Part shown: in pieces, positions 1 through 16,422 of the stretch
How the letters are laid out: each line of letters starts with the position of its first letter
How positions within the stretch are numbered: the first letter of the stretch is position 1
Origin: Nitrosopumilaceae archaeon
GTDB lineage: Archaea > Thermoproteota > Nitrososphaeria > Nitrososphaerales > Nitrosopumilaceae
Length of the DNA stretch: 16,422 nucleotides
Assembly: GCA_965200155.1 (NCBI GenBank)
Contig: CBDATR010000030.1
Location: 1-16,422, forward strand
Direction of reading: 5' to 3'
The notes under the pieces: generated by a model
Database searches by the model: none
The model's input: the letters and a program-made list of their open reading frames with translations, nothing else
Told to the model about the DNA's origin: nothing
Translations under genes and position numbers: made by a program

Positions 1-3000
1 GGTATAGTCTCGCCAACGACGCTATTGCCGGGCGGCGCTGTGGTAAGAGGCGCGCGACTGGGAACGACAGCATTAAAGACGGCCGGTACGACGAGTGCGG
101 CAGCCGCAGCCGCCGTAGGCATACAGGAAGCAATCCTGCAGGAGAATGTTAATGACAGGACTCTCTTTGAGAGTGCAACTAATGTGGCTGCGGGCGCACT
201 ACTTGGCGGTGCTTTGGGCGCGGGGGTGGGAGCCCTTGCTGGTCGAATACCCACGCCGCGGAGCTTTGATGAGGAGGTCATCGTACCTTACGAGGCTCCA
301 TCGGCTGTTCCCACGCCTGCCGTCGAGGCTGCGGACGACGCTGCTATTCCTCCTGGCATTGTGGTTAGTGATGAAGCTGGGCCGCCGATTAATCCCACCG
401 GCAGCGCTGCAGCAAAAGCTGCAGCCGATGGAGATATCAGACTAGATAGTGCGCTGGGTACGGCCACCTTCTTCGGTAAGGTATCCAGATACGCGGCGCT
501 CAATAGCCCCACAGTATCTGGCTACTTGAACGATATACCATCGATACGCGATAGCATGCGAGCCCTTGACAGTGGCGGCCTCCTATTCCGTGACGGCCAC
601 GGCAAGATTGCTGCGACTAGTGATGTGATTAGCAGGAAGAAGGCTTGGGAGGGACAGTACAAGAGAGCGCATGAGGCTAGCAAGGCAGCCATCAAAGAAT
701 ACCAGAAGTCGGTGACTCGCGCAGAGGGCCGTATGGGCAAGAAGGAGATAATGGAGCGTGCCTCTGATGCTATCGACGGAGGACTTGAGAAGTTCGACGG
801 ACCGTCCGTTGTTAAGGAGGTGGTAGAGGCTTATCAAAAACATGTGTTCCGCTCCCTTCTTCGAAGAAGCACAACGGCTAGAGTTTACTGATGCGGATAA
901 GTGGATGGATCCCAACACTTATGTGCCTCATAAAGTGCGTCGGCAATTGGTCACGGGGAAGCATGAAGAGTTTGTTGAGATATTGACGGAGCACTTTGCT
1001 GAGATAATAGGCGGCAAGGTTAATAGCGCGTTGAATAGACTGGAACAGCGGACAACAGGAAGACAGCTGGCTATCAAGGATTTGGAGGCGTCGCCGGAAG
1101 AGTTTGATGAACTGGAAGAGTTCTTAACGACGCAAATTGAGACGCTGAAGTCGAACCCTATGAAGATTCGCGGAATGAAGAAGCGTCTTGCCAACCTGCG
1201 CAAAGGTAAGGTTGCGCTTGAACGGAGGATGCAGAAGCAGAACGAGGAAATCTCGCGCGTTGAGGATGTGCAGGTTAGAGAGATTAACCGACTGATAGCG
1301 AAGGTGTCAAATCTCATCTCTCGTCCCTCTTTGATGGAGGAAGTTTCGGAACTTCTGCCAGAGGCAGGAATGTTCGCGTCAAAAGGAACTAAGCATCATG
1401 TTGAGACGAGAAGGCCTAAGAAGATAAAAGAGGCCAATCTTACAAAATTGGACGCGGATATTAAGAAGGTGCATGCTGAGGCCAAGAGGCTGGCTAAGAT
1501 TTTTCCCTCCTATCAGCATTATATTGATACTATTGATGAGAATCCTACTAGAACTAACAAAGCTATATATTCTTCAAGACTTATTAATGCAACGGAGGTT
1601 CACCTCGGTGAATTAAAATATCAAAGACAATCTGCACGAGGTCGGCTGGGTCATTTGCGTAAGGGTAAGGTAGGTTATGTTAAAGATAGTAAGGGCAAAG
1701 TTGTTCGTGATGGTGAGGGTAAACCTATTCGAGAGGAGCTATCAGAGAAGGAACTAGCTAATAGGATTAAAAACCTTGAGGAGGAAATAAAGCTACAGAC
1801 ACAAAAAATTGACTATATGGAGAAGGAAAAAAGCACGCTTGATAATTTTGCAAGTGATGTAAGGTATAGGACGCATAAGCGTAACGAGCTGACAAACAAG
1901 TGGTCAGACACATTGGAGACACGCCTCCTAGAGCTCAATGATGCAAAGTTGGCTATCGTTAGAAGGCGTGAGAGACGCTTGATGGAGCTGATTGAGGACA
2001 AGCAGAAATATGATCCTGAACTTGTAGCGAAGAGGCAAGAGGCATTTCAAAAAGAGATCGATCGCGACTATGGTAATGTGTATGCGCGTCTTGTCAAGCA
2101 AGGACTGTTGGATGAAGGTGGGGATATTGCAGGGGCAGCGTTTAATATAGGAAAGATAGCGCGTAAACAAGCCGAGGTCACCTCGTCTAAGTTCCTCAAA
2201 GATGTTAGCAGGATTCCACTTGTGTCAACGCTGTTGGAGCGTGGCCCTGAGTTAGACCGCACCCTTAACATCGACCCACTGAGGGTATGGTCTAATGGTT
2301 ATCGCTACATTGATTTTATGGAGCGCGATCTTGACCATCTCGCACGCATCTACACGCGTACGGTGGGTGCAGACTTTGAGATATATAGGTCATTCGGCTC
2401 CGTCAATCCCTTGGGTAAAGGATCTGAGTTTATCGAGCAGGTGAATAAACAAGTCGAAGACATGCGGGCTAAGGTGAAAGAGGAGCTTGAAGGAAAAGAA
2501 GCGGAAAAGGCACTTGCTCGTATCAACAATGAATATACACGAGGCGTTAAGGAGCTGCGTGAGGTTATAGAACGGGCGCGTGACATGCGAGGTATACCCG
2601 AGGATCCGGAGAGTATACCTTGGAGGGCTGGTAAAACGCTGCTCAATCTCAACACGCTGAGGTTGATGGGCGGCGTCGTGATCGCTTCGTTGGCTGATCC
2701 CGGCAACCTCAGTTAAGCGTCTGGGTGTAGAATCTATTTACCGCGACGGCCTGCGCCACATGTTTACCAACTTCAAGGCGTTGGAGGCGGGGGCTCGTGA
2801 AGCTCGCTATGCAGGAGCAGGACTGGACTTGTTGACGCACGCACGACTGCAAGCTATAACAGATACCTGTTGACGATTATGGTCTAGGTAATAAGGGTGA
2901 ACGCTATCTTGCAGTACTTGCACCAACAACATGGGCAGGATTGCGCTGTTTGATTTCTGGAATGCGTTTTGGAAACAGACTGTTGGCGCCCTCACAATGC

Positions 3001-3831
3001 AGCGCATTATTCATGACATCGATGGTGTTGCAGACTGGTAAGGGTAACAAGGCCGTAGCGGAGAAGATTCCTCGCCCATACTAACATTGGTGAGGAAGAG
3101 GCTAATGGCAATCCTGGGCATGAGATACAAGCAAAGGTGGCGCCTCCAATTATAAAGGCGTGCTTGTGCCCAATACTGAGGATTGGAAGGATCCACAGGT
3201 TGCGCAAATGTTTCGCCAAGCCATCGTGCGTATGGTCGATGATACCATCGTTACACCGGGTTTCGAGCGTCCCGCCATCATGGACGAGACTATGTTTGGC
3301 AAACTAATCTTTCAGTTTCGCAGCTTCGCATTCGCCTCCATTACCAAGACACTACTGTACAGCGCTCAAGAGTTGAAGTACGGCAACCTAAATATTTTGG
3401 CAGGTAGTGGAATGGCGCTTGCATTGGGTGCCGCGTCGTGGTATACATGGTCAATCCTTGCTGGGGAAGATCAAGCAGCCCGGATGCGGAATGCAGACTA
3501 TGATAAGTGGATGGATGAGTCTATCAACCGCAGTGGTCTACTTGGCCCGTTGCAGGAAATACTGAATATCGGATCTAAGATACCCGGGGTTGCGGATTTT
3601 GTACAGTTCTCAGGCGAATCGACCTCAAAGAGTTATCGCCCATTCGATGATCCTATCATTGATGCGGGTGGTCCCTCGGTTGGCTTTGTGAAGGACCTGC
3701 AGAAGGCAATTGGAACAGCGTCTGAACCTAATCAAACAACCTTTAAGGCTATACGGAGGTTGTCACCATTGGCGAATGTATCCTATATTCGCCCTGTGTT
3801 AAACACCCTGGAAGATGAGGTATACAAGTAA
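1..3831 (+). CDS. Large internal virion (ejection/core-type) protein, 5'-truncated by the window, interrupted by frameshifts (ORF-track pieces 25-891, 842-2716, 3160-3831)
   Basis: Frame 1 is open from base 1 (GIVSPTTLLPGG...). Gly/Ala-rich hydrophobic stretch (AAGALLGGALGAGVGALAG), long coiled-coil middle, and C-terminal motifs (RLMGGVVIASLAD, PNTEDWKD, DDTIVTPG, QFRSFAFAS, NRSGLLG) of the kind seen in large podovirus internal virion proteins. Pieces join into one reading frame if single-base indels at ~850 and within 2711-3140 are corrected. Confidence 0.65.
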
Positions 3832-7486: not shown

Positions 7487-8007
7487 TAGCCGCAGCCCTG
7501 GGTTTCCTCGCCCCCTTCCTGCCCGACCTTATAGGTATGGGCAAAGGGTGGGTGGATCATAAGCAGGAATTGCAGATGATGAAGCTGCGCCTTGATCATG
7601 CTGCTCAAGAGCATGATTGGCGCATGGATTTGATACATGAGCAGGCGGCGTTGCAAAGTCAGATTGCTGCACGCAAGCCCCATCAGTCTTACGGTGTACA
7701 AATCCTGAATGCGGCACAGCATAACGAGGGTCTGATTAATGGTTGGGTATTTAGTATCGCTTTTATTATGTTCAGTGCGCTGGACTGGTTCATCAGCTCC
7801 GTACGTCCAACAGTCAGCTACTTCATCTTCGGAGTGTGGGGCAGCGTCAAGCTCGCCTCGCTGCTGTTCATCTATGAGCAAAAACAAGACCTCGTTCTTA
7901 CCTTGTCACACCCGCTCGCGTTCACCGACTTTGACCAAGAGCTGATGCTGCTGATCGTAGCGTTCTGGTTTGGCGATCGCACGAGGCGCCGGGTCATGGA
8001 AAAATGA
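7483..8007 (+). CDS. Holin, GTA-type 3TM family-like
   Basis: N-terminal amphipathic segment, coiled coil, then hydrophobic helices with characteristic SVRP and FWFGDR motifs and a basic C-tail; directly upstream of the endolysin. Confidence 0.75.
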   Translation: MIAAALGFLAPFLPDLIGMGKGWVDHKQELQMMKLRLDHAAQEHDWRMDLIHEQAALQSQIAARKPHQSYGVQILNAAQHNEGLINGWVFSIAFIMFSALDWFISSVRPTVSYFIFGVWGSVKLASLLFIYEQKQDLVLTLSHPLAFTDFDQELMLLIVAFWFGDRTRRRVMEK

Positions 8008-8450
8008 GCGAGGCCTTGCGGCTGGCTGCGGAATGTGCCAAGGAGTTTGAAGGGTTAAGCTTGGACCCCTATAGAGATCCGGTGGGGTATCCTACCATCG
8101 GGTATGGGCACCTGCTCTCACGTAATACTCACATTCCCCTTGCTCAATGGCAGTCGATTAGTATAGATGCAGCGCATAGCTTACTCGAGGATGATATGAT
8201 GACGGCAGTGGGTGCCGTGGCACGACTCATCAATGTGCCCTTGACAGCGGGACAAGAAGCAGCGTTAATAGACTTCTGTTTCAACTGTGGCAGTGGTAAC
8301 TTACAGGTCTCAACGCTACGCCGCGTCGTAAACCGTCAGGAATACGACGCGGCGCCTACTCAATTAATGCGATGGGTGTACGCCCGTGGTATGAAACTGC
8401 CCGGGCTGGTTAGGAGGCGTCAGGCTGAATGTGAATTGTGGCAGCGCTAG
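8004..8450 (+). CDS. Endolysin, GH24 phage lysozyme
   Basis: Catalytic E-x8-D-x5-T pattern (FEGLSLDPYRDPVGYPTIGYGH), FNCG, and C-terminal LPGLVRRRQAE. Confidence 0.95.
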   Translation: MSEALRLAAECAKEFEGLSLDPYRDPVGYPTIGYGHLLSRNTHIPLAQWQSISIDAAHSLLEDDMMTAVGAVARLINVPLTAGQEAALIDFCFNCGSGNLQVSTLRRVVNRQEYDAAPTQLMRWVYARGMKLPGLVRRRQAECELWQR

Positions 8451-8875
8451 CGTAACCCTGTCCGTTTTATGGACGAGGTTACATCAAACCTGTATCCCAC
8501 TTCCTCAGGAGTCAGCTCGGTGTAATGCGCGTAACCTTCCGGCACCCGACAGGTGAAGCTAGGATTCCGATGCTGCATTCGCGCGATGCCGATAAATAGG
8601 CTCCAGCCTAAACCAGACACAACCCTATGATGTGTATCGTGAGTGTAGAACCTAAGGCTGGGGCCTAATCGGCGTCTTGTTCGACTGAAGATTTGTTCAG
8701 TCATCCTTCCTTTCAACAACAGACTAATGCTGTACTTCCATGGGTGGTTGTGCATCCGCTCAGTCTTCTCACTGCACCCTGCTGGGTAGTGGTGCAGGTA
8801 CACAGTCAACCATCGGCCACGCAGACCGCGTCTAAGCATCCAGCCATTCTGCACATTATTAGAGATGTATCTCAT
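8447..8875 (-). CDS. Cupin-fold (HxH...H) putative metalloprotein/dioxygenase (142 aa)
   Basis: VYLHH...HNHPW...ISLLLKG..TE...HHRV...WSLFIG pattern; ATGA overlap with the upstream helicase-like gene, GGAGGTG upstream. Confidence 0.6.
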   Translation of the reverse strand: MRYISNNVQNGWMLRRGLRGRWLTVYLHHYPAGCSEKTERMHNHPWKYSISLLLKGRMTEQIFSRTRRRLGPSLRFYTHDTHHRVVSGLGWSLFIGIARMQHRNPSFTCRVPEGYAHYTELTPEEVGYRFDVTSSIKRTGLR

Positions 8876-10083
8876 CTCTTCTCACCTCCCTTGGCTTGTG
8901 GAATGTAGGCTGTCTTACCCTCAATAACTGTGGTCTTAATCATACCAGATCGCTCCATTATCTCAATGACATGTCTCACTTTGTACGCATCAGTCCTATC
9001 CATCAAGAATGCATTTAGCCTGGATGCAGCAACGCCTCGTTTACCCTCGCGTACGAATGTAGTCCACAGATAGTGAAACGCTTCACTAATGGTGGCGCTG
9101 TCACCGCCTGAAGACATCGTCTTGAAGATGTCCTCCATATTCGCCTCGGCCTCAGTCAACCAGCGCACCGACCTCTTCACATGCGCTTCCTCGATCAGCA
9201 TCGAACCGCCTTGGCTAGCACTAGCCACCTGACACAGCTTCAACACATGCGCTGTGCGACGCTCGTTGTAGTTACTAAGCTTGGGATGAGAGGGGCGCGG
9301 CTCACCTCCCGACAGGTGCCACCTGTTGATGTAATCCTTGGCATCATCGGCCCATTTAAATCTCCCTGACATGTTGTTAATGAGATTCAAATCTTTGTAC
9401 AGGCGTTCAAGGTTTAGGTTGGAGACTGTAAACAAGTCCTGTTGGATCTTCTCACCACTGTATACGAGTATGCACCGGGACATGAAGCCCTGTTCCCATG
9501 CCACTTCAGGCAGCAGCGAGTGTAGGAAGCCAGGCTGTGTGCCGCATAGCATATTCAGGTATGGATTTGGGATGTTAATCTTCAGACCACCACCGCGCTT
9601 CCTCTCCGTATACACTTTGCAGTCATACAAGTCGGTTAGATGAGACATGAACTCGAGGTCGTAGGATGGCAGCAGGACACCTAGCTCGTTAACCGAGGCG
9701 AGCAGCGCATTGTATTCGTACGCGCCCGACACTACTTTGGCGTCCTGCAAGCTGTCCGTAAGAGAGGCGCGGGACATGTTCGCCGAAGCTATGTGCAGCC
9801 CGTCGACCGAAGTCCACGCTTGGCGCACCCTGTCCGTCACCTCTGTCTTACCCACCCCAGGTCTCGCACACAGTATGACATAGAGATTTGGGTATAGGTT
9901 TGAACCGAGGGTGTGCACATGGACCTTGCGCTCCAGCACTCCAGCGATGCAGCTAATGGCACCCCATAGCCGAAAGCACTGGGGTGCAGTGGTCTGGTTG
10001 GTGGCTTCTATGAATGCATCAACCCAGTCCCCGAAGTCCCGTTCATACTTTTTGGAGCCCGGTTGGGTTGTGCTCTTCGTCAT
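8872..10083 (-). CDS. DUF3987/YfjI-like P-loop ATPase, putative replicative helicase
   Basis: Walker A ARPGVGKT, Walker-B-like LASVNE, GTQP, GFMSR arginine-finger-like motif, probable C-terminal winged helix; follows the polymerase. Start uncertain (10140, 10083, or ~10046 if one base is missing). Confidence 0.7.
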   Translation of the reverse strand: MTKSTTQPGSKKYERDFGDWVDAFIEATNQTTAPQCFRLWGAISCIAGVLERKVHVHTLGSNLYPNLYVILCARPGVGKTEVTDRVRQAWTSVDGLHIASANMSRASLTDSLQDAKVVSGAYEYNALLASVNELGVLLPSYDLEFMSHLTDLYDCKVYTERKRGGGLKINIPNPYLNMLCGTQPGFLHSLLPEVAWEQGFMSRCILVYSGEKIQQDLFTVSNLNLERLYKDLNLINNMSGRFKWADDAKDYINRWHLSGGEPRPSHPKLSNYNERRTAHVLKLCQVASASQGGSMLIEEAHVKRSVRWLTEAEANMEDIFKTMSSGGDSATISEAFHYLWTTFVREGKRGVAASRLNAFLMDRTDAYKVRHVIEIMERSGMIKTTVIEGKTAYIPQAKGGEKR

Positions 10084-11482
10084 AATCACCCCAGTTGCTT
10101 CCTGTCTTAGCTTCGACAGGAACATAGAATTCCCTGTCACCCTTCAATATGAGAGTATATGCGTCGGTCATGGTCTGTTTAATCTTGGGGATGAGATGTT
10201 CGTGTTTGATGGGTAGTTGGAATAGGATGCTATCATGTACTTGTACTAGTAGCTGGACGCTAGGGTAGGTGCGCCACACTGCTTCTAGGGCGGCATCGAT
10301 CTGATGTCCTGTCATGCTTTGTGGCTCGTAGGCTAGCATCTCACGAAGCGTCGCGTCCTCTTTGCTGCGTCCCCAGAACCTCCGCCTTCGACCGTACAAG
10401 GTGGTGAGTGTGGCGGGGTAATCGTTCATTTGTGCGGCGACCCACTGGTGCCACATCTTGATGCAGGGGAAGCTTTGGAAGTAGAGTCTTTGGAAGTTCT
10501 TGACAATCTGCGTCGGTATGCTGACTCGCTTTCCAAGTGATACAGGAGACGCAAAGTAGTTGGTAGCATGGCCCAATTTCTTCGCCGTTTGTCTATAAGA
10601 TTCATTACGATAGTAGGTGTCCAACACATCAGTAATCCCGGGCCACACAAGAAGACAAACAGAGGTATGTAGATCGCTGCTTTCACAAGCGTCAAGGTAC
10701 CTTCCAGCAGTATCTTTGCCAAATTCTTCCACGAAGAGTTCATAACATTTAGCTCCTACATTACGGCTATCAGCCTGTTCAAGATCCACATTCACCAACA
10801 CATGGCCCTTGTCAGCTACAAAGCATGTGCGCAACCTTCGATCAACGTTTTGCAGGTTCGTCCCCGAACCAAAATCAGAAGCCCTGCTTGCAAGTCTCCC
10901 AGTATTAGTACCGGCTACATTAAAGCTGGTGTAGAGACGATCGCCTCCCGTTGTCTTGTTGAGGAAGCCGATCTGCTTCCAGATGTCTCGCATCGCCGCT
11001 ATGAGGATGGCGAAGGGAATGGCTGTGTAGTGTTGTTTCAATTTCTCGAGGGCCTCGAGGTCAACAGAAGGAGCCCACACACCCTTGGTATTGCGCTTCT
11101 TTACCGTTGGCAGCGCCAAGTATTCGTAGAACAGTTCCTTTACTTGCTTAGGGCTCCGATAATTAAACCTTCGGTTAAAGACGCCATCACAGAGCATCTC
11201 ATATTTACTAAGTAGGTTGGCGTGATCTGCGGTGAGCCGCTTCAATAGCCGGGCTACCTGGGCGGGGGACATGCGAACACCTCGCAGCTCCATCTCCATG
11301 ATAGGCACCTGCTTTTGCAGCGCGAACCGATAGGTCCAGCCAACCTCACTAGGGGCACGCTCTATCTGTTCATGCAAGTCAGTGAAGAGCTCATAGGTGA
11401 CAAGACAATCAATGCCGTTGTAGAACCACGCAACCTCGTCCTTGTTGCGTGGCACAGCCCTCGTTAAATCATAGACGGTCAT
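10043..11482 (-). CDS. Family A DNA polymerase, polymerase domain plus ExoIII helix only (479 aa)
   Basis: SPKQVKELFY, TNTGRLAS, NLQNV, motif A (DLEQADSR), motif B (RQTAKKLGHATNY), TLYGRRR, motif C (QVHDSI); N-terminal YNGID matches ExoIII YxxxD. Confidence 0.93.
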   Translation of the reverse strand: MTVYDLTRAVPRNKDEVAWFYNGIDCLVTYELFTDLHEQIERAPSEVGWTYRFALQKQVPIMEMELRGVRMSPAQVARLLKRLTADHANLLSKYEMLCDGVFNRRFNYRSPKQVKELFYEYLALPTVKKRNTKGVWAPSVDLEALEKLKQHYTAIPFAILIAAMRDIWKQIGFLNKTTGGDRLYTSFNVAGTNTGRLASRASDFGSGTNLQNVDRRLRTCFVADKGHVLVNVDLEQADSRNVGAKCYELFVEEFGKDTAGRYLDACESSDLHTSVCLLVWPGITDVLDTYYRNESYRQTAKKLGHATNYFASPVSLGKRVSIPTQIVKNFQRLYFQSFPCIKMWHQWVAAQMNDYPATLTTLYGRRRRFWGRSKEDATLREMLAYEPQSMTGHQIDAALEAVWRTYPSVQLLVQVHDSILFQLPIKHEHLIPKIKQTMTDAYTLILKGDREFYVPVEAKTGSNWGDYDEEHNPTGLQKV

Positions 11483-11943
11483 TCAAAGATAGCCTTTTGA
11501 GGCTTGCGTCCTTGCATCTGATACTTGCCGGTGTATGTGTTGAGAGGAGGTGATGATAGTTGATGGAACACGATCTGCGCTATGGGTTCGCCAGCGTGTA
11601 CCAGCACATCCAACTCACTATGATTCGTCGCCTCAAGGGTGAGCCATCCTTCCCAACCTGGTTCGATCACTGTGTTCTGCAGGGCGAGACCAAGGCGTGC
11701 CCATGTGGACTTGTCGTGTACGAATGCGATCAGATTATTGGGCATCACGAAGCGCTCCCATGACACCAGCAATGCAAAGCCACCCGCACTGATGGGAGTA
11801 TCTTCACCATTGCGGATGTCATACCCTGCGCTTGACAGCCCGTAGCTCTTACCGTAGGCTTTCATCTTCTCCAAGTAAGCGGGGCGTACCATATGATCCT
11901 CCAGATACGGTGTCAGGCATCTGTCACTCAACACTGTCATCAT
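11479..11943 (-). CDS. dcd: dCTP deaminase (trimeric dUTPase superfamily)
   Basis: LSD, SYGLSSAGYDIR, DKSTWARLG (catalytic S/R), IEPGWEGWLTLE (catalytic E), PIAQIVF, YTGKYQ. Confidence 0.88.
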   Translation of the reverse strand: MMTVLSDRCLTPYLEDHMVRPAYLEKMKAYGKSYGLSSAGYDIRNGEDTPISAGGFALLVSWERFVMPNNLIAFVHDKSTWARLGLALQNTVIEPGWEGWLTLEATNHSELDVLVHAGEPIAQIVFHQLSSPPLNTYTGKYQMQGRKPQKAIFE

Positions 11944-12944
11944 CAGTCTCCTTTCTTATCTGTCTTGCTCTCTTGTCGCATGAACTTCCACGCAGGGCGA
12001 TTGGTGTACATACTCGCGAGATAGCCGAGGCCTTTCTCAAGCTCGGGCTCGAGGGTGTGGTGCATCAGCATTGTGTCGTGTGCCCAGTTGTTGCACGCAA
12101 TGCCCATCGCCTGCCACAAATACTTCATATCATAGGCGAAGTTTTGGCCGATCAGTCTCTTGCTCTCACACACCTGCTTCACTATGCGCCATGCTTCAGC
12201 CTCGAGCCCTGCGTTGGGCCAGTATGATTCGTTGGGGCGCTTAAAGAATGGGATGCACACTGCCTCTGTGGATGAGATGGCGAAGCCTATTTCTGTGATG
12301 GTGCCACCCTCGGTCTCGATATCGCACACTACATACGGCGCCGGTGCGATGCGTACCAAGTAGTATAGCATTAGCTCTTCTATACCCCTATCATCTGGCG
12401 ACGGGACGAACAGCTGACTGGTTGTCTTGTGGATGTGAGGGCTGCCCATCTCCTGCCGTGCTTTGGCTAGGTCCATCATGAAGGTGGGCATGAGTTTGTA
12501 GTTGCGCAGGACCATGGCAGGGTGCCAGGTCGCCAAGCACTTCTGTCCGTCCTTCGTCTCGAAGAGATAGCCTCGCCTCTTCGCTATGCCTGCATTCCCC
12601 GTTAATGCCCACAATGCTGTGCTACCTAGTGCTAGCACCAGATCTGATTTGTAGGCGTGCAGTTCCTCTTTAAGCCTCACCAGCTCCTGCTCATATTCTG
12701 CTCGCACATATTTGCCGGGCGCCAGCGGTCCGTACCCCTTAATGCCCTCCTCTTTACTCGCGCAAAGGCTCTCGATGTTGTTGCGTTCAGGCCGCAGGTT
12801 AAACACATTGGTCATGTGGCTGACATCCTGTGGAGCGATGCCTACCTTTTGCATGACCTGTTTGAGGAGCCAGCCACTGGGACCTACGAAAGGCAGGCCT
12901 TGCAGTTCCTCCTGCTCACCCCACGCCTCCCCCACCACCAGCAC
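11943..12944 (-). CDS. Family 4-like uracil-DNA glycosylase domain fused to a partial DnaQ-like 3'-5' exonuclease (N-terminal half of an SPO1-type DNA polymerase)
   Basis: UDG motifs VGEAWGEQE..GLPFVGPSG, TNV...RP, VLALGSTA, TWHPAMVLR; then ExoI CDIET, ExoII GQNFAYD, HDTMLMHH and GLGYLAS; stops before an ExoIII motif. GTG start overlaps upstream TAG. Confidence 0.88.
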   Translation of the reverse strand: MLVVGEAWGEQEELQGLPFVGPSGWLLKQVMQKVGIAPQDVSHMTNVFNLRPERNNIESLCASKEEGIKGYGPLAPGKYVRAEYEQELVRLKEELHAYKSDLVLALGSTALWALTGNAGIAKRRGYLFETKDGQKCLATWHPAMVLRNYKLMPTFMMDLAKARQEMGSPHIHKTTSQLFVPSPDDRGIEELMLYYLVRIAPAPYVVCDIETEGGTITEIGFAISSTEAVCIPFFKRPNESYWPNAGLEAEAWRIVKQVCESKRLIGQNFAYDMKYLWQAMGIACNNWAHDTMLMHHTLEPELEKGLGYLASMYTNRPAWKFMRQESKTDKKGD

Positions 12945-14203
12945 TATTCACCTCTTTCCAATATGGAGCCGAGATGTAGGCGTGCGTCTTTGTAGATGGC
13001 TGGGTCAATCTCGAGACCGAGAGCATACTTGGACTGGTTGATACGCGCTGCCTTGACGGACGATGCACTGCCGCAGGTGGGGTCGAGCATCCTAGTCTCG
13101 CCACGCTTAACAAACATGTTGAAGAAGTGCATCAGTATATAGAAAGGCTTCTCATTGCGATGCCACTTATTAGACACAGGGCCAGCGTATACATCGTCCA
13201 CCACTCTCCTTATGTGACGGTCACCTACCGTGGCGATGAGCGCAGTCTCATACACATGCCTCGCATCGTAGTATGGGTTTGGTGACACGCCCTTGCCATC
13301 TGACTTGTGCCAGATCAGGGGTGTGTGTTTGACTGTGAACCCAGCGTCCTGCAGCAGCACACGCGTTTCTTGTAAGTATTTGGTGGCACACCAGAACATC
13401 AGGTGCGAGTTCGGGGCTATGATACCCATGTCCCGAGCCTCTGATAGACCGAGGATGAGACGCGTGAATATGTCGAAGCTATCACTGTATTGGGACTGAT
13501 GTTCTGATGATAGCTGATCGCCTGACTTGTCGATTTCGATACCGTAGGGGAAATCGCAATGGATGAAGTCAAACGGCAGGCCTTCATAGGTATGTATCCA
13601 CTTGAGGAAATCCTCATTGAGGAGCTCACAGGGTCCACGAACCACCTCCTTACTCTGCGTCGGTGCAGGACTGCTGGATAGGTCGAGTGCATTTAGAGCC
13701 TCACGCTGATCCCGCATCTTATTCTTGGCCATGGCCTTGAGTGCGGATCCACGCTTATCCAGACCCGCGATGTTGTTGTCATCCTTCACCGCTTGCGCGA
13801 TATTGAGATCTTCACTTAGCTTGGACTTACTCACACCCAGTTCGAGGGCTAGTTCGACGACACTGATGCCGGGTTCCTCGTTGCGACGCATCTCGCAGTA
13901 CCGGTACACAGCATCCGTATGCTCTTGCCATGTCAGGTTCTTACGCTTTGCGTTCTCCTCGAGCTCAATCAGTTCCTTCTCAATCTCCGTCAAGTTAGAT
14001 AGGAGGCGGGTCTCGATCATATCCATGCCGAGTGCTTTGCATGCACGCAGCCTGCGTTCCCCCGCGATCAGTACATTATTCTCATCGACTACGATAGGGT
14101 TTATGAGGCCAGCGTTTGCGATGGACTTAGCCAGCTCCTCGATGTCGCCCATATCAGAACGCTGCCTTTCTGGCAGCACTCTCACCTCTTCAATTGGTAT
14201 CAC
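12944..14203 (-). CDS. ParB/Srx N-terminal domain fused to a beta-class amino (N6-A/N4-C) DNA methyltransferase
   Basis: ELAKSI...GLINPIVV...LIAGERRLRA...EENAKRKNL plus HTH (LALELGVSKSKLS); C-half has DFIHCDFPYG (motif IV variant), LIWHK, HRNEKP and LDPTCGSAS (motif I variant), GLEID, in motif IV-before-I order. Confidence 0.85.
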   Translation of the reverse strand: MIPIEEVRVLPERQRSDMGDIEELAKSIANAGLINPIVVDENNVLIAGERRLRACKALGMDMIETRLLSNLTEIEKELIELEENAKRKNLTWQEHTDAVYRYCEMRRNEEPGISVVELALELGVSKSKLSEDLNIAQAVKDDNNIAGLDKRGSALKAMAKNKMRDQREALNALDLSSSPAPTQSKEVVRGPCELLNEDFLKWIHTYEGLPFDFIHCDFPYGIEIDKSGDQLSSEHQSQYSDSFDIFTRLILGLSEARDMGIIAPNSHLMFWCATKYLQETRVLLQDAGFTVKHTPLIWHKSDGKGVSPNPYYDARHVYETALIATVGDRHIRRVVDDVYAGPVSNKWHRNEKPFYILMHFFNMFVKRGETRMLDPTCGSASSVKAARINQSKYALGLEIDPAIYKDARLHLGSILERGE

Positions 14204-14230
14204 TCTCAGTTACTCCGGCTCTCAATTATG

Positions 14231-14261
14231 AAAGGAAAGGGAGGGAGCCGAAGCTCCCTCC
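14231..14261 (-). terminator. GC-rich hairpin with C(UUCG)G tetraloop, probable weak intrinsic terminator
   Basis: Minus strand reads GGAGGGAGC-TTCG-GCTCCCTCC then CTTTCCTTT; perfect 9-bp stem 8 nt after the SSB-like stop codon; U-tract interrupted. Confidence 0.7.
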
Positions 14262-14269
14262 AGAAAATG

Positions 14270-14767
14270 CTAGCGAATATCCTCACCCATCTGTGCGAGT
14301 GAAAGCGTACGGCTGATGCGTACATTCATAGCCTCTGGGTTGTCCTTACGAGGCTCAATCGTCAACTGTCCTATGAACTCCATGCCCTCGATCCTGTCGA
14401 GCTGTGACAGCAAAGACTCATCATCCTCTGCCTCGATCCCAAGGAGGTTGATGAAGTTCTGAAGCTGGAAGCTCGTCTGCTGATTGCTCCTTTCCGCATC
14501 TGGATCATCAGACTGATTGAAGATGAAGGTGTGCCTCACATTGATTGTCTCAACGCTCGCCCCGTAGTCGTCCAGCTCCCTATCATCGACATCGACCTGT
14601 GCTGCCAGTGCCTTGCAAGGGACTTCAAGGAAGGCCCAAGCGCCATCTCGTGATTCTCGTGTAGTGTGTTTTCTTGATACGACAAACCTATAGTGTCCAG
14701 CTGGAGGATGTGGAGGGCGCTTGATGTCTGCTTTCTTTGCTTCGAGTCTTTCTAGTATACCAACCAT
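14270..14767 (-). CDS. Putative single-stranded DNA-binding protein (DUF669-like)
   Basis: PPAGHYRFVV N-terminal motif, acidic composition, beta-rich pattern, position directly after a Sak4-like ATPase and before a hairpin; AAGGA upstream. Confidence 0.55.
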   Translation of the reverse strand: MVGILERLEAKKADIKRPPHPPAGHYRFVVSRKHTTRESRDGAWAFLEVPCKALAAQVDVDDRELDDYGASVETINVRHTFIFNQSDDPDAERSNQQTSFQLQNFINLLGIEAEDDESLLSQLDRIEGMEFIGQLTIEPRKDNPEAMNVRISRTLSLAQMGEDIR

Positions 14768-14773
14768 CTATGT

Positions 14774-15514
14774 TTATCCTTTAAGTGTGTTGAAAATGTC
14801 GACCAATCCTGTAGAGATTGGGTAACTAGGCTTCAGCCTTTTAGGGGCTGAATTCTTAACATTAGTAACAGCGTCACTAATGGTAGAAATGACATGCTTC
14901 ACCTGTCTACCAGATCCTAGCTTGTCATACCTAAATACCTCGTTGAAATGTCGAGGTATCTTATCACCCAGTGCTTTGCCTACACTGGATGCATAGCCCC
15001 GCACCATATCTTCGGATACTTCACGGTAGTCTATGTGTGTTATTGTTATTGAGTGGCAGGGGAATTCGCTATGTGTGAGGACCTCGATGAATGGCTCGAC
15101 CACCTCCTGCGCATTCATGTAATGCGCTCGGTTGTCCTTGAGGCCTGGGTTCTGTGCCTTCGCCCAGATCAGGCACGCCCTGCCTAGTGCAGTCAGGCTG
15201 TCCACCACTATCACATCATCGGGCGCGGCTTCCTTCTGCCACTTCTCCAGCGTCATCCCAATCTGCGTCAGCGTATGTTGTCCCTTCAAAGGTTTGGCCC
15301 CACCCACACCAATGCTGAACTTGGGGGCCATGCTCTCAATGATCAGTTGTCCAGCTCGCTCGGGGCACTCATCCTTTATAAAGTTTCGTAGTATTTTTGA
15401 GCCATTTTCGAGGTCTAGGAGACGGAGGGTGTAACCTGCGTGTATGAGGGATATGAGACTGCCAGTCTTACCGGTGCCTGTATCACCTAGCAGGAGGAGA
15501 TGGTTCTTGTCCAT
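14774..15514 (-). CDS. AAA_24/Sak4-like ATPase (putative recombinase)
   Basis: Walker A GDTGTGKT, LDLENG, Walker B VIVVDSLT, ITH motif; 246 aa; between nuclease and SSB-like gene. Confidence 0.75.
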   Translation of the reverse strand: MDKNHLLLLGDTGTGKTGSLISLIHAGYTLRLLDLENGSKILRNFIKDECPERAGQLIIESMAPKFSIGVGGAKPLKGQHTLTQIGMTLEKWQKEAAPDDVIVVDSLTALGRACLIWAKAQNPGLKDNRAHYMNAQEVVEPFIEVLTHSEFPCHSITITHIDYREVSEDMVRGYASSVGKALGDKIPRHFNEVFRYDKLGSGRQVKHVISTISDAVTNVKNSAPKRLKPSYPISTGLVDIFNTLKG

Positions 15515-16416
15515 CAGTCTCTCACCTCTCTCACGAAGGTTTGCTGTGATGGAGGCAAGGCCTCAGTCAGGTAGGCCTTGCGCATGGCTGGTGATATGCT
15601 GCACACCTCACGGAACTCGCAGCCTTGGAAGTAACCACATGCGCTCGGGTTCTGCGGCCAGTCCGCTTCATTGTGGGGATCTTTGTCTTTGACTGCCTCG
15701 ATCTCGAGCGTGACGCCATTCAACCATTCGTCTAGCTGATCCTTGGTGCGTGAGACCACGCCGCGCATCATCTTCACGCTCCCGCTCTTCATCACCTGCA
15801 CTGCATCGATGAGGAAGCGAGCCGCCGGCTTGTTGAAGACAATGTAGGCGGCGAGCATGTATAGACTCATCTGGTTATTGGGAGTCCATGTCTTGAAGTA
15901 CATGGGACTCAGCGATGACTTCGTTGTCTTCTGATCGAGCAGGATAAGCTCGTCGTCTCGCTTGAGGACGAGGTCAAGGCGGCCACAGAAGGTGAGGTTG
16001 TTGGTGTCGAAGAGGAAAGATTGTTCCGTACGCCATACACTCGGACCGTCCAGCTCATAGTACTGGTCGAAGTATTCGACGAGCGCAGTGATCAATGCCT
16101 TGCGAGTCTTCACTTCTTCAGAGGGGAACTGCTTGCTATAATACTTACTGTTGCGCATGGCGAACATGATAGTGTTGTTCAGTGTTGACTCGTAGTCTGG
16201 ATCACGATGCTTGTAGAAGTATTCGATGGATGAGGCGAACAGTCCACCGAAGGCCAAGTCGGCGCTCGCAGTCTTGGACCTCCAGCCCTGCAGGATTGTA
16301 TAATAGTAGTAGCGTTTGCATTTTTGAAGGGCAGTGATTGATGATGCATTCCATATAGTCTGTCGTCCATCATCATCAAACATCTTGTAGTCGTATCTAT
16401 TCACAGTCTTGCTCAC
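15514..16416 (-). CDS. PD-(D/E)XK Cas4/RecB-like exonuclease with putative Fe-S cluster
   Basis: SSITALQKCKR, E...GRLD...DQKT, QMSLY, C-terminal CGYFQGCEFREVC (1+3 Cys arrangement). Start is at the window edge and uncertain. Confidence 0.85.
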   Translation of the reverse strand: MSKTVNRYDYKMFDDDGRQTIWNASSITALQKCKRYYYYTILQGWRSKTASADLAFGGLFASSIEYFYKHRDPDYESTLNNTIMFAMRNSKYYSKQFPSEEVKTRKALITALVEYFDQYYELDGPSVWRTEQSFLFDTNNLTFCGRLDLVLKRDDELILLDQKTTKSSLSPMYFKTWTPNNQMSLYMLAAYIVFNKPAARFLIDAVQVMKSGSVKMMRGVVSRTKDQLDEWLNGVTLEIEAVKDKDPHNEADWPQNPSACGYFQGCEFREVCSISPAMRKAYLTEALPPSQQTFVREVRD

Positions 16417-16422
16417 AGCTTG

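Follow-up and report, generated by a model that had tools for sequence, protein, structure and literature searches.

Non-canonical active-site residues of a split family A DNA polymerase are shared across an almost wholly uncultured phage lineage

We have found that the unusual active site of a family A DNA polymerase (PolA) gene, carried by phage DNA in a Nitrosopumilaceae archaeon assembly, is common to a large lineage of viral polymerases. The window analyzed here is the whole of a 16,422-nucleotide (nt) contig, C30 (GenBank assembly GCA_965200155.1, contig CBDATR010000030.1), which belongs to a 51-contig, 2.38-Mb metagenome-assembled genome (MAG) that is 87.6% complete; the DNA of the window is that of a phage. 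Its polymerase gene (P0001, 479 amino acids [aa]) lies at positions 10043-11482 on the minus strand, as do all features of the polymerase and its module given below. We consider it probable that P0001 provides the catalytic part of a replicative family A polymerase made in two pieces and belonging to a deep, almost wholly uncultured lineage associated with uracil-DNA glycosylase (UDG), that its residues are inherited, and that canonical deoxynucleoside triphosphates (dNTPs) are its most likely substrates. A preliminary description, made from the sequence of the window, had named five departures from Escherichia coli Pol I (equivalents of E710D, F762H, G767F, N845A and E883S) and had suggested altered sugar or base selectivity, possibly tuned to dUTP or a modified dNTP. 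The residues were confirmed, and the tuning was not supported. What seems new is a PolA lineage that has apparently escaped classification; as a property of this one phage, the residues are ordinary.

The active site and its conservation

P0001 matches the Pfam family DNA_pol_A (PF00476; E 3.5e-33) with 115.5 bits against a cut-off of 34.3, over profile positions 4-381 of 381, and comprises the last exonuclease helices followed by thumb, palm and fingers. The register was set against E. coli K-12 PolA (from NC_000913.3) using a hidden Markov model (HMM) of the query and 119 homologues of 44-57% identity, and the E. coli numbering of this profile alignment was checked on printed residues. DLeqaDaR is paired with DYSQIELR, RqlaKklGHgtnYy with RRSAKAINFGLIYG, and RxAIAYxPQ with RAAINAPMQ, without gaps. 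Motif A, DLEQAD (10769-10786), begins with the catalytic Asp233 (equivalent to D705; 10784-10786) and ends with Asp238 at the steric-gate position (E710; 10769-10771). Motif B on the O helix (R297-K301-H305-Y309-F310; 10553-10594) presents His305 at position 762, or B3 (F762 in E. coli; 10568-10570), Tyr309 (Y766; 10556-10558) and Phe310 (G767; 10553-10555). The helix Q motif R380-x3-A384-x3-Q388 (10319-10345) has Ala384 in place of N845 (10331-10333) and retains Gln388 (Q849; 10319-10321). Motif C is His416-Asp417-Ser418 (10229-10237), or HDS where Pol I has HDE. All five residues of the preliminary description are therefore found at their codons, although Phe310 stands in a column that varies freely (Y, L or F) and carries no signal.

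Residues on either side of these substitutions serve as anchors, with D705/Asp233, R712/Arg240, R754/Arg297, K758/Lys301, R841/Arg380, A843, I844, H881/His416, D882/Asp417 and E883/Ser418 all paired. The spacing of R297-K301-H305-Y309 equals that of R754-K758-F762-Y766 (i, i+4, i+8, i+12), and that of R380-A384-Q388 equals R841-N845-Q849. In the AlphaFold2 model (mean predicted local distance difference test, pLDDT, 94.4) the residues of motif B and helix Q fall in helices. Residues 1-477 of the model superpose on residues 468-928 of the Klenow chain 1kfs_A with a Z score of 34.1 and a root-mean-square deviation of 4.0 over 418 residues, and Foldseek template modeling scores to the Taq and Bst enzymes are 0.72-0.75. 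A shift of register on structural alignment had been named as the outcome that would undo the residue assignments, and the register withstood that challenge. In Pfam score, in catalytic and dNTP-binding anchors and in its Klenow-type palm, fingers and thumb, P0001 fits a family A DNA polymerase. Its active site lies outside the canonical Pol I/T7 type, which has F, Y or L at 762, Asn845 and Glu883, and has His305, Ala384 and Ser418 instead.

Among 120 near homologues, Asp233, Asp417, Arg297, Lys301 and Gln388 are present in all, His416 in 119 and Tyr309 in 114, with Phe in the other 6. At the substituted positions, Asp238, His305 and Ala384 occur in 120/120 and Ser418 in 112/120. A second copy of the polymerase, on a contig of the same MAG (C19) that carries a strain variant of the phage, shares 470 of its 479 residues with P0001, and its 9 differences all lie away from the active-site positions.

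An exhaustive HMMER search of 1.84 billion cluster representatives (50%-identity clusters) returned 10,932 matches at E <= 1e-3, 3,931 at E <= 1e-10 and 616 at E <= 1e-30. The best 150 of these 616 were inspected, and 149 were new, with 33-57% identity. At position 762 these 149 representatives have His in 146, with one Phe, one Tyr and one gap; Ala is found at 845 in 139. At 883, Ala (81 representatives) and Ser (56) prevail and Glu appears once; position 710 is acidic throughout, with 104 Glu and 45 Asp. An IMG/VR scan, seeded with the peptide patterns [VIL]DLEQAD[AGS] and GT[NV]TGRL[SA]S, gave at least 597 matching stretches, of which at least 343 were confirmed and 80 were kept as related loci. 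His762 was present in 76/76 of these loci and Asp710 in 74/76, a count that is biased upward because the scan was seeded with the DLEQAD pattern. The combination of His762, Ala845 and HDS was also found in Caulobacter phage Kuura, Polaromonas phage Tiera, Desulfofustis phage LS06-2018-MD01, Microcystis phage Mel-JY34, Vibrio phage VS-ABTNL-3 and the viral genome MW202489. Only 3 of 50,697 phage records match the polymerase subunit at E <= 1e-19, and Kuura alone falls in the crown group, in which the enzyme is split. The preliminary description had allowed that these might be clade-typical residues, and that caveat proved correct: as judged from their distribution, the non-canonical residues are a hallmark of the lineage and no special adaptation of the query phage.

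A tree of 144 rows was constructed using FastTree; it omits 26 long representatives of more than 600 aa, fragments shorter than 430 aa and, from the first homologue set, two thirds of the sequences. Only the nesting of the tree was used, because FastTree supports are local and the deep outgroup rows are long-branched. The query lies inside a 46-row clade (support 99) in which every row has Asp710 and which is nested among Glu710 rows; the tree requires 2 changes at position 762 and 7 at position 710. Asp710 is thus, on the evidence of this nesting, a mark of the subclade that holds the query.

Two apparent couplings were followed and dropped. Raw counts for positions 710 and 883 are 65 Glu/Ala, 46 Asp/Ser, 17 Glu/Ser and 4 Asp/Ala, but co-variation of Asp710 with Ser883 did not survive reduction to 7 independent pairs (median p 0.25). 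Phe766 was seen only with Asp710 (10/53 Asp rows vs 0/91 Glu rows) and Leu766 only with Glu710 (3/91); a coupling of 710 with 766 was likewise non-significant over 7 independent pairs and was not kept as evidence.

The long representatives carry a further feature at motif B. Straight after the Gly that follows His762 (equivalent to 10565-10567 of the window) there is an intein-like insert, some 130-300 aa or more in length, at a junction where GHG is followed by CLTxDHEVLT. This junction was found in 16 of the 26 long representatives checked (P0128, P0130, P0136, P0140, P0143, P0152, P0169, P0192, P0231, P0154, P0178, P0200, P0254, P0190, P0227 and P0268), and some of the others have an insert farther upstream. 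No Pfam intein family was matched in 7 long homologues, and the designation as intein-like derives from the junction motif.

The divided exonuclease, the gene slot and known polymerase groups

The exonuclease of this polymerase is divided between two proteins. P0002 (333 aa; 11943-12944) matches Pfam UDG at E 2.7e-16 and DNA_pol_A_exo1 at E 2.8e-6, and consists of a family-4 UDG-like domain at about residues 1-165 followed by Exo I and Exo II. Asp208 and Glu210 of Exo I (12315-12323) align with E. coli D355/E357, and Asn268 and Asp272 of Exo II (12129-12143) with N420/D424. Exo III, Tyr21-x3-Asp25 (11408-11422; Y497/D501 in E. coli), is at the N-terminus of P0001. The score of the UDG-exo HMM against E. 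coli PolA is low (14.7 bits with --max), and the pairing of motifs is clear. The predicted DEDDy set (Exo I DxE, Exo II Nx3D, Exo III Yx3D) is complete but spread over two polypeptides, the break falling inside the exonuclease domain, between Exo II and Exo III. In 74/74 relatives the residues of both Exo I and Exo II are on the UDG-exo protein, and those of Exo III are present in 118/118 alignment rows, in 145 of the 149 representatives (4 gaps) and in 76/76 loci. In all 76 loci showing both parts, UDG-exo and polymerase are read in separate frames, with 11-1759 bp between them; the remaining 4 of the 80 begin at or near the polymerase. Likewise, each of the 149 representatives starts near the polymerase N-terminus, and none has an upstream exonuclease part. 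Because the motifs are divided in this way, a working proofreading site would need both chains, and we infer from the division that the two chains assemble.

The deeper relatives Tiera, MW202489, Mel-JY34 and the Desulfofustis phage have single chains of 764-826 aa that also carry His762. The fission therefore arose within the His762 lineage and is old. It had been suggested that the active-site residues might co-vary with the split; the two do occur together across the crown group, but the deeper fused forms have His762 as well. In Vibrio phage VS-ABTNL-3 (MF497422, 3909-7043) the polymerase is interrupted elsewhere, ahead of motif A, by an open reading frame (ORF) of 184 aa. Since this site differs, breakage of PolAs has happened more than once in the lineage.

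The AlphaFold2 model of P0002 has a pLDDT of 91.5, and its best Foldseek matches are the Thermotoga maritima UDG 1l9g (fold E 6.2e-11) and the UDG-PolA of phage phiLo (9qhs). GEAWG, PFVGPSG, Asn46 and HPAMVLR are retained, and motifs A and B and the Phe of PFxG align with the UDGs of T. maritima and Thermus thermophilus. P0002 begins at motif A and is without the N-terminal part of free-standing UDGs. In the 74 relatives, Glu6 is conserved in 64, Phe19 in 69, Asn46 in 53 and His141 in 51.

In the window, the slot between the two genes (11479-11943) is filled by dcd, which encodes a predicted dCTP deaminase (P0003, 154 aa; Pfam DCD E 3.9e-20; PHROG 1663 E 3.1e-42). Its KSTWARLG and EPGWEGWLTLE align with dCTP deaminases of solved structure in the PDB (E 1.2e-15) and agree with the Dcd-type motifs KSSxxR and (D/E)PG(W/F)xGxxTLE of the trimeric dCTP deaminase/dUTPase superfamily. 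The nearest phage relatives of dcd, at 44-50% identity, are in N4-like roseophages and Erwinia phages. The exonuclease gene and dcd overlap by 1 nt (TGATG, the dcd start lying on the upstream stop), and dcd and the polymerase gene by 4 nt (ATGA). For the related loci (L007-L086), slot genes were clustered from ORFs of at least 85 aa and Pfam was run on 19 representative ORFs. A DUF1937 gene (nucleoside-deoxyribosyltransferase-like) occupies the slot in 43/76 loci and a KTSC-domain gene in 17/76; HNH endonuclease, MazG/PRA-PH, dNMP kinase, DUF7768 and unknown genes also occur. The slot is, to judge from these contents, a hot spot for variable cargo. An HMM of the 43 slot genes found no DUF1937-like gene in the whole MAG, and a literature search found no paper that treats DUF1937 together with phage. 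Insertion of dcd was considered as the cause of the split and rejected, the split being present in 76/76 relatives that have no dcd.

Viral PolAs have been sorted by the residue at 762 into three types (F, Y and L), which track deep clades and the make-up of the replication module (Nasko 2018, PMC6302109; PMC9069017; 10.64898/2026.05.20.726624). A reclassification of 2023 recognizes 19 clusters, with Phe, Tyr or Leu at B3 in its available text, and places UDG-PolAs as N4-like or as unclustered SPO1-type enzymes (PMC10201439). The two-chain enzyme of the window resembles several of these groups in part. SPO1-like UDG-PolAs (SPO1, SP-10, CP-51, Shanette), a group that forms no proper cluster in PMC10201439 and is named in PMC13697223, give the next best phage matches to the UDG-exo subunit after members of the lineage, at about 24-26% identity. 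With CP-51, an SPO1-like Bacillus phage, as comparator, the UDG motifs fit, and its UDG-fused polymerase has VHDS, which agrees with the earlier remark that HDS occurs in other phage polymerases. That enzyme differs in being a single chain of about 925 aa with Phe762 and Asn845, encoded beside a thymidylate-synthase homologue in phages with genomes of about 130-140 kb and 5-hydroxymethyluracil (hmU) DNA (PMC10201439), whereas the query is a podophage of about 40-50 kb in which no ThyA homologue was seen.

N4-like UDG-PolAs (cluster 17 of Czernecki et al. 2023, PMC10201439) likewise have a UDG ahead of exonuclease and polymerase and belong to podophages of Proteobacteria, and N4-like roseophages carry a dCTP deaminase of the same type as that of the window. 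As described in PMC10201439, these enzymes are single chains of about 800-900 aa in which B3 is Phe and the catalytic residues of the UDG are gone, in contrast to the two chains, His at B3 and retained UDG motifs found here. The UDG-exo subunit matched 39 phage records at E <= 1e-5, and no N4-like phage was present in the best 25 of these. SP15-like UDG-PolAs (YerA41, phiLo; PMC13697223; PDB 9qhs) combine an active-type UDG with exonuclease and polymerase, and phiLo 9qhs_A ranks among the best fold matches to the UDG-exo subunit (Foldseek E 6.2e-11 over 307 columns). They are 1100-1300 aa long, with Insert 1, Insert 2, a C-terminal domain and an O-helix Phe, and come from hypermodified-thymine genomes (PMC13697223); the query has 333 + 479 aa and no large insert over Klenow 468-928, and 9qhs is absent from the 58 PDB sequences that match the polymerase subunit at E <= 0.01.

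The split T7-like PolA of cyanophage S-SBP1 (cluster 5), the only exonuclease/polymerase fission described in the available text of PMC10201439, also has its two parts in adjacent genes. The new termini in the query are predicted to be loose (P0002 325-333, pLDDT <50; P0001 1-10, mean pLDDT 66). The S-SBP1 fission is a recent one-base frameshift with overlapping genes, in an enzyme that has Tyr at B3 and no UDG (PMC10201439); the split of the query lineage is old and clade-wide, and mostly has other genes between the parts.

We regard it as evenly balanced whether the His762 UDG-PolAs constitute a fourth deep type of viral family A polymerase that surveys have missed, with a crown group that is obligately two-chain and has a composite proofreading site and a cargo slot. 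The type would have been missed because only F, Y and L were kept at 762 and because almost no cultured phage has it. A screen of 2022 retained only F, L or Y at this position (Keown 2022, PMC9069017), and the His762 clade therefore cannot appear in its scheme. Screens of this kind silently drop His762 sequences (at least 343 confirmed IMG/VR loci; 616 clusters at E <= 1e-30, of which the best 150 were inspected). The 762 residue serves to sort viral PolAs from metagenomes and as a guide to phage life style, and a scheme without the large His762 lineage is incomplete. No description of a His762 PolA was found in the text of the literature, figures and supplementary logos lying outside the search; in the available text of PMC10201439 'histidine' is used only for a His-tag and a UDG residue, and the word is absent from the PASV preprint. 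As far as our searches show, the active site of His762, Ala845, Ser or Ala883 and Asp or Glu710 has no printed description; site-directed mutagenesis of Pol I and Taq suggests that those enzymes would tolerate it poorly. The lineage would also be a natural case of a family A polymerase whose proofreading site is drawn from two polypeptides, and it could supply biotechnology with new polymerases if the His/Ala/Ser site also confers unusual tolerance of sugars or analogues.

Substrate choice

It is proposed that His762, Ala845, Ser or Ala883 and an acidic residue at 710 are fixed in the lineage as co-adapted characters, and that the enzyme most likely uses the four canonical dNTPs to replicate ordinary DNA. 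By analogy, His305 would sit on the O helix where T7 has Tyr526, may hydrogen-bond to the region of the incoming 3'-OH and beta-phosphate, and would behave closer to the Tyr type than to the Phe type. The conserved acidic residue at 710 would keep ribonucleotides excluded, and the UDG domain would remove uracil. The dCTP deaminase would raise the supply of dUMP and dTTP by way of host enzymes, most likely through host ThyX. The sole ThyX of the MAG is on a host-like contig (C35), and no ThyA-family gene was found in the MAG.

Several points weigh against this proposal. The likeness of His762 to Tyr is one that we take from the T7 and Klenow structures, and canonical selectivity is deduced from context. 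About 32 kb of the phage is visible, on C19, C30 and a third contig, C37, and a modification gene could sit on the unseen part. The nucleotide-pool genes in the slot of relatives (DUF1937, MazG/PRA-PH, dNMP kinase) leave room for pool manipulation. Inspection extended to the best 150 of 616 clusters, which makes the size of the His762 lineage a lower bound. In favor of the proposal, DNA of Kuura gave BamHI fragments of the expected size and was sequenced by ordinary Illumina methods (PMC9959647), but a single BamHI digest of one lineage member is weak evidence against modified bases.

The alternative that survives best, which we nevertheless think unlikely, is a lineage-wide change of sugar selectivity on canonical bases, expressed as weak discrimination against dideoxynucleotides (ddNTPs), relaxed exclusion of ribonucleotides (rNTPs) or 2'-modified nucleotides, or odd speed or fidelity. 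In Pol I, Taq and T7, the residue at 762 controls both activity and discrimination against ddNTPs (PMC10201439, 10.64898/2026.05.20.726624), and the near-fixation of His there implies a function. In Klenow, Glu710 and Tyr766 are joined by a hydrogen bond, the loss of which would fit the restriction of Phe766 to Asp710 rows. The associations of 710 with 766 and with 883 are non-significant, however, the steric gate appears kept in that 710 is acidic in 149/149 representatives, and the active site may be a compensated equivalent of the Tyr type.

It is very improbable that the polymerase is adapted, through these residues and the dCTP deaminase next to it, to dUTP or some modified pyrimidine dNTP for DNA of the dU or hmU type, a reading that takes up the tuning suggested in the preliminary description. 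The deaminase gene does lie between the polymerase genes and is translationally coupled to both, and the known routes to dU and 5-hydroxymethyl-dU (5hm-dU) begin with dCTP deaminase (PMC12697855, PMC13697223). UDG-fused PolAs of SPO1-, SP-10- and SP-15-type phages replicate thymine-modified DNA (PMC10201439), and the genome of the query phage is only partly seen. The same residues occur without dcd, however. No dcd homologue was found in any of the 80 related loci (tblastn, E <= 1e-4), and ThyA, ThyX and DCD were each absent from 5/5 complete relatives (CheckV 100%) with the Asp/His/Ala/Ser signature. Neither a ThyA-type hydroxymethylase nor a thymine-nucleotide-degrading enzyme was found on C19, C30 or C37. 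Polymerases that accept 5hm-dUTP have Phe762: those of phiLo and YerA41, which incorporate it, pack the sugar against F930 and F1055 (PMC13697223). An active UDG would attack dU-containing DNA, and the retained family-4 motif residues fit uracil removal and not a uracil-containing genome; uracil removal has been shown for SP15-like enzymes (PMC13697223). Because the signature occurs in relatives without dcd and the polymerases of thymine-modified phages have Phe762, tuning to dUTP or a modified dNTP is unsupported. The practical message for the window is negative, in that the residues are no evidence for the use of dUTP or modified nucleotides by this phage.

An alignment artefact, in which a shifted register hides canonical residues at the true structural positions, is scarcely credible: single-sequence phmmer against Taq did gap the region near 845 differently (pairing Glu386 with Taq N750) and one MAFFT --add run placed E. 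coli motif B wrongly, but the profile alignment is gapless over four motifs with Y766 and Q849 among the paired anchors, the helical periodicity and Klenow superposition agree with it, the same helix face has no Phe, Tyr or Leu within a turn of His305, and Asn at 845 is impossible in any register of P0001, there being none in 380-388.

Gene neighborhood and sister contigs

The minus strand of the window holds the replication module, as identified by Pfam and PHROG matches, and the plus strand holds pieces of a podovirus-type internal virion protein and a lysozyme. In transcription order the module begins with a PD-(D/E)XK nuclease (15514-16416), followed by a Sak4-like AAA_24 ATPase (14774-15514). 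A fusion of ParB-N and DNA methyltransferase (12944-14203; Pfam ParB_N E 1.3e-9; N6_N4_Mtase E 1.5e-4, under the cut-off) precedes the UDG-exo gene and is the conserved upstream neighbor of the polymerase module, present in most of the 80 related loci. Downstream of the polymerase, its conserved neighbor in related loci is a DUF3987 primase/helicase-like gene (8872-10140; Pfam DUF3987 E 1.3e-14; PHROG 14296 'DNA primase' E 2.1e-38), the true start of which is probably inside the listed ORF. As far as contigs reach, the order in the 80 loci is ParB-methyltransferase, UDG-exo, polymerase and DUF3987. A 142-aa ORF between the lysozyme and primase genes (8447-8875, minus strand) has a weak match to PHROG 4786 'cysteine dioxygenase' (E 8.4e-10) and matches no Pfam family.

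Megablast of positions 8000-16422 against phage records gave no match. Two strain variants of the phage are present in the same MAG: C19, which matches the window at 96.4% identity across 14.7 kb, and C37, at 97% across 5.2 kb. C19 extends farther upstream and adds a UvrD-like helicase and a HIRAN protein; no nucleotide-modification gene is among these additional genes. The MAG matches PF00476 only in the phage copies on C30 and C19, and a cellular PolA was not found at its 87.6% completeness. Many small contigs of the MAG have a GC content of 36-40%, compared with 45-49% in large ones, and given this contrast the bin may be mixed.

The internal virion protein at 1-3831 on the plus strand is represented by three ORF pieces (1-891, 842-2716 and 3160-3831) with a gap at 2716-3160. 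On C37 (3230-7339, minus strand) the same protein is a single ORF of 1369 aa, and the three pieces in the window reflect either a strain difference or assembly frameshifts.

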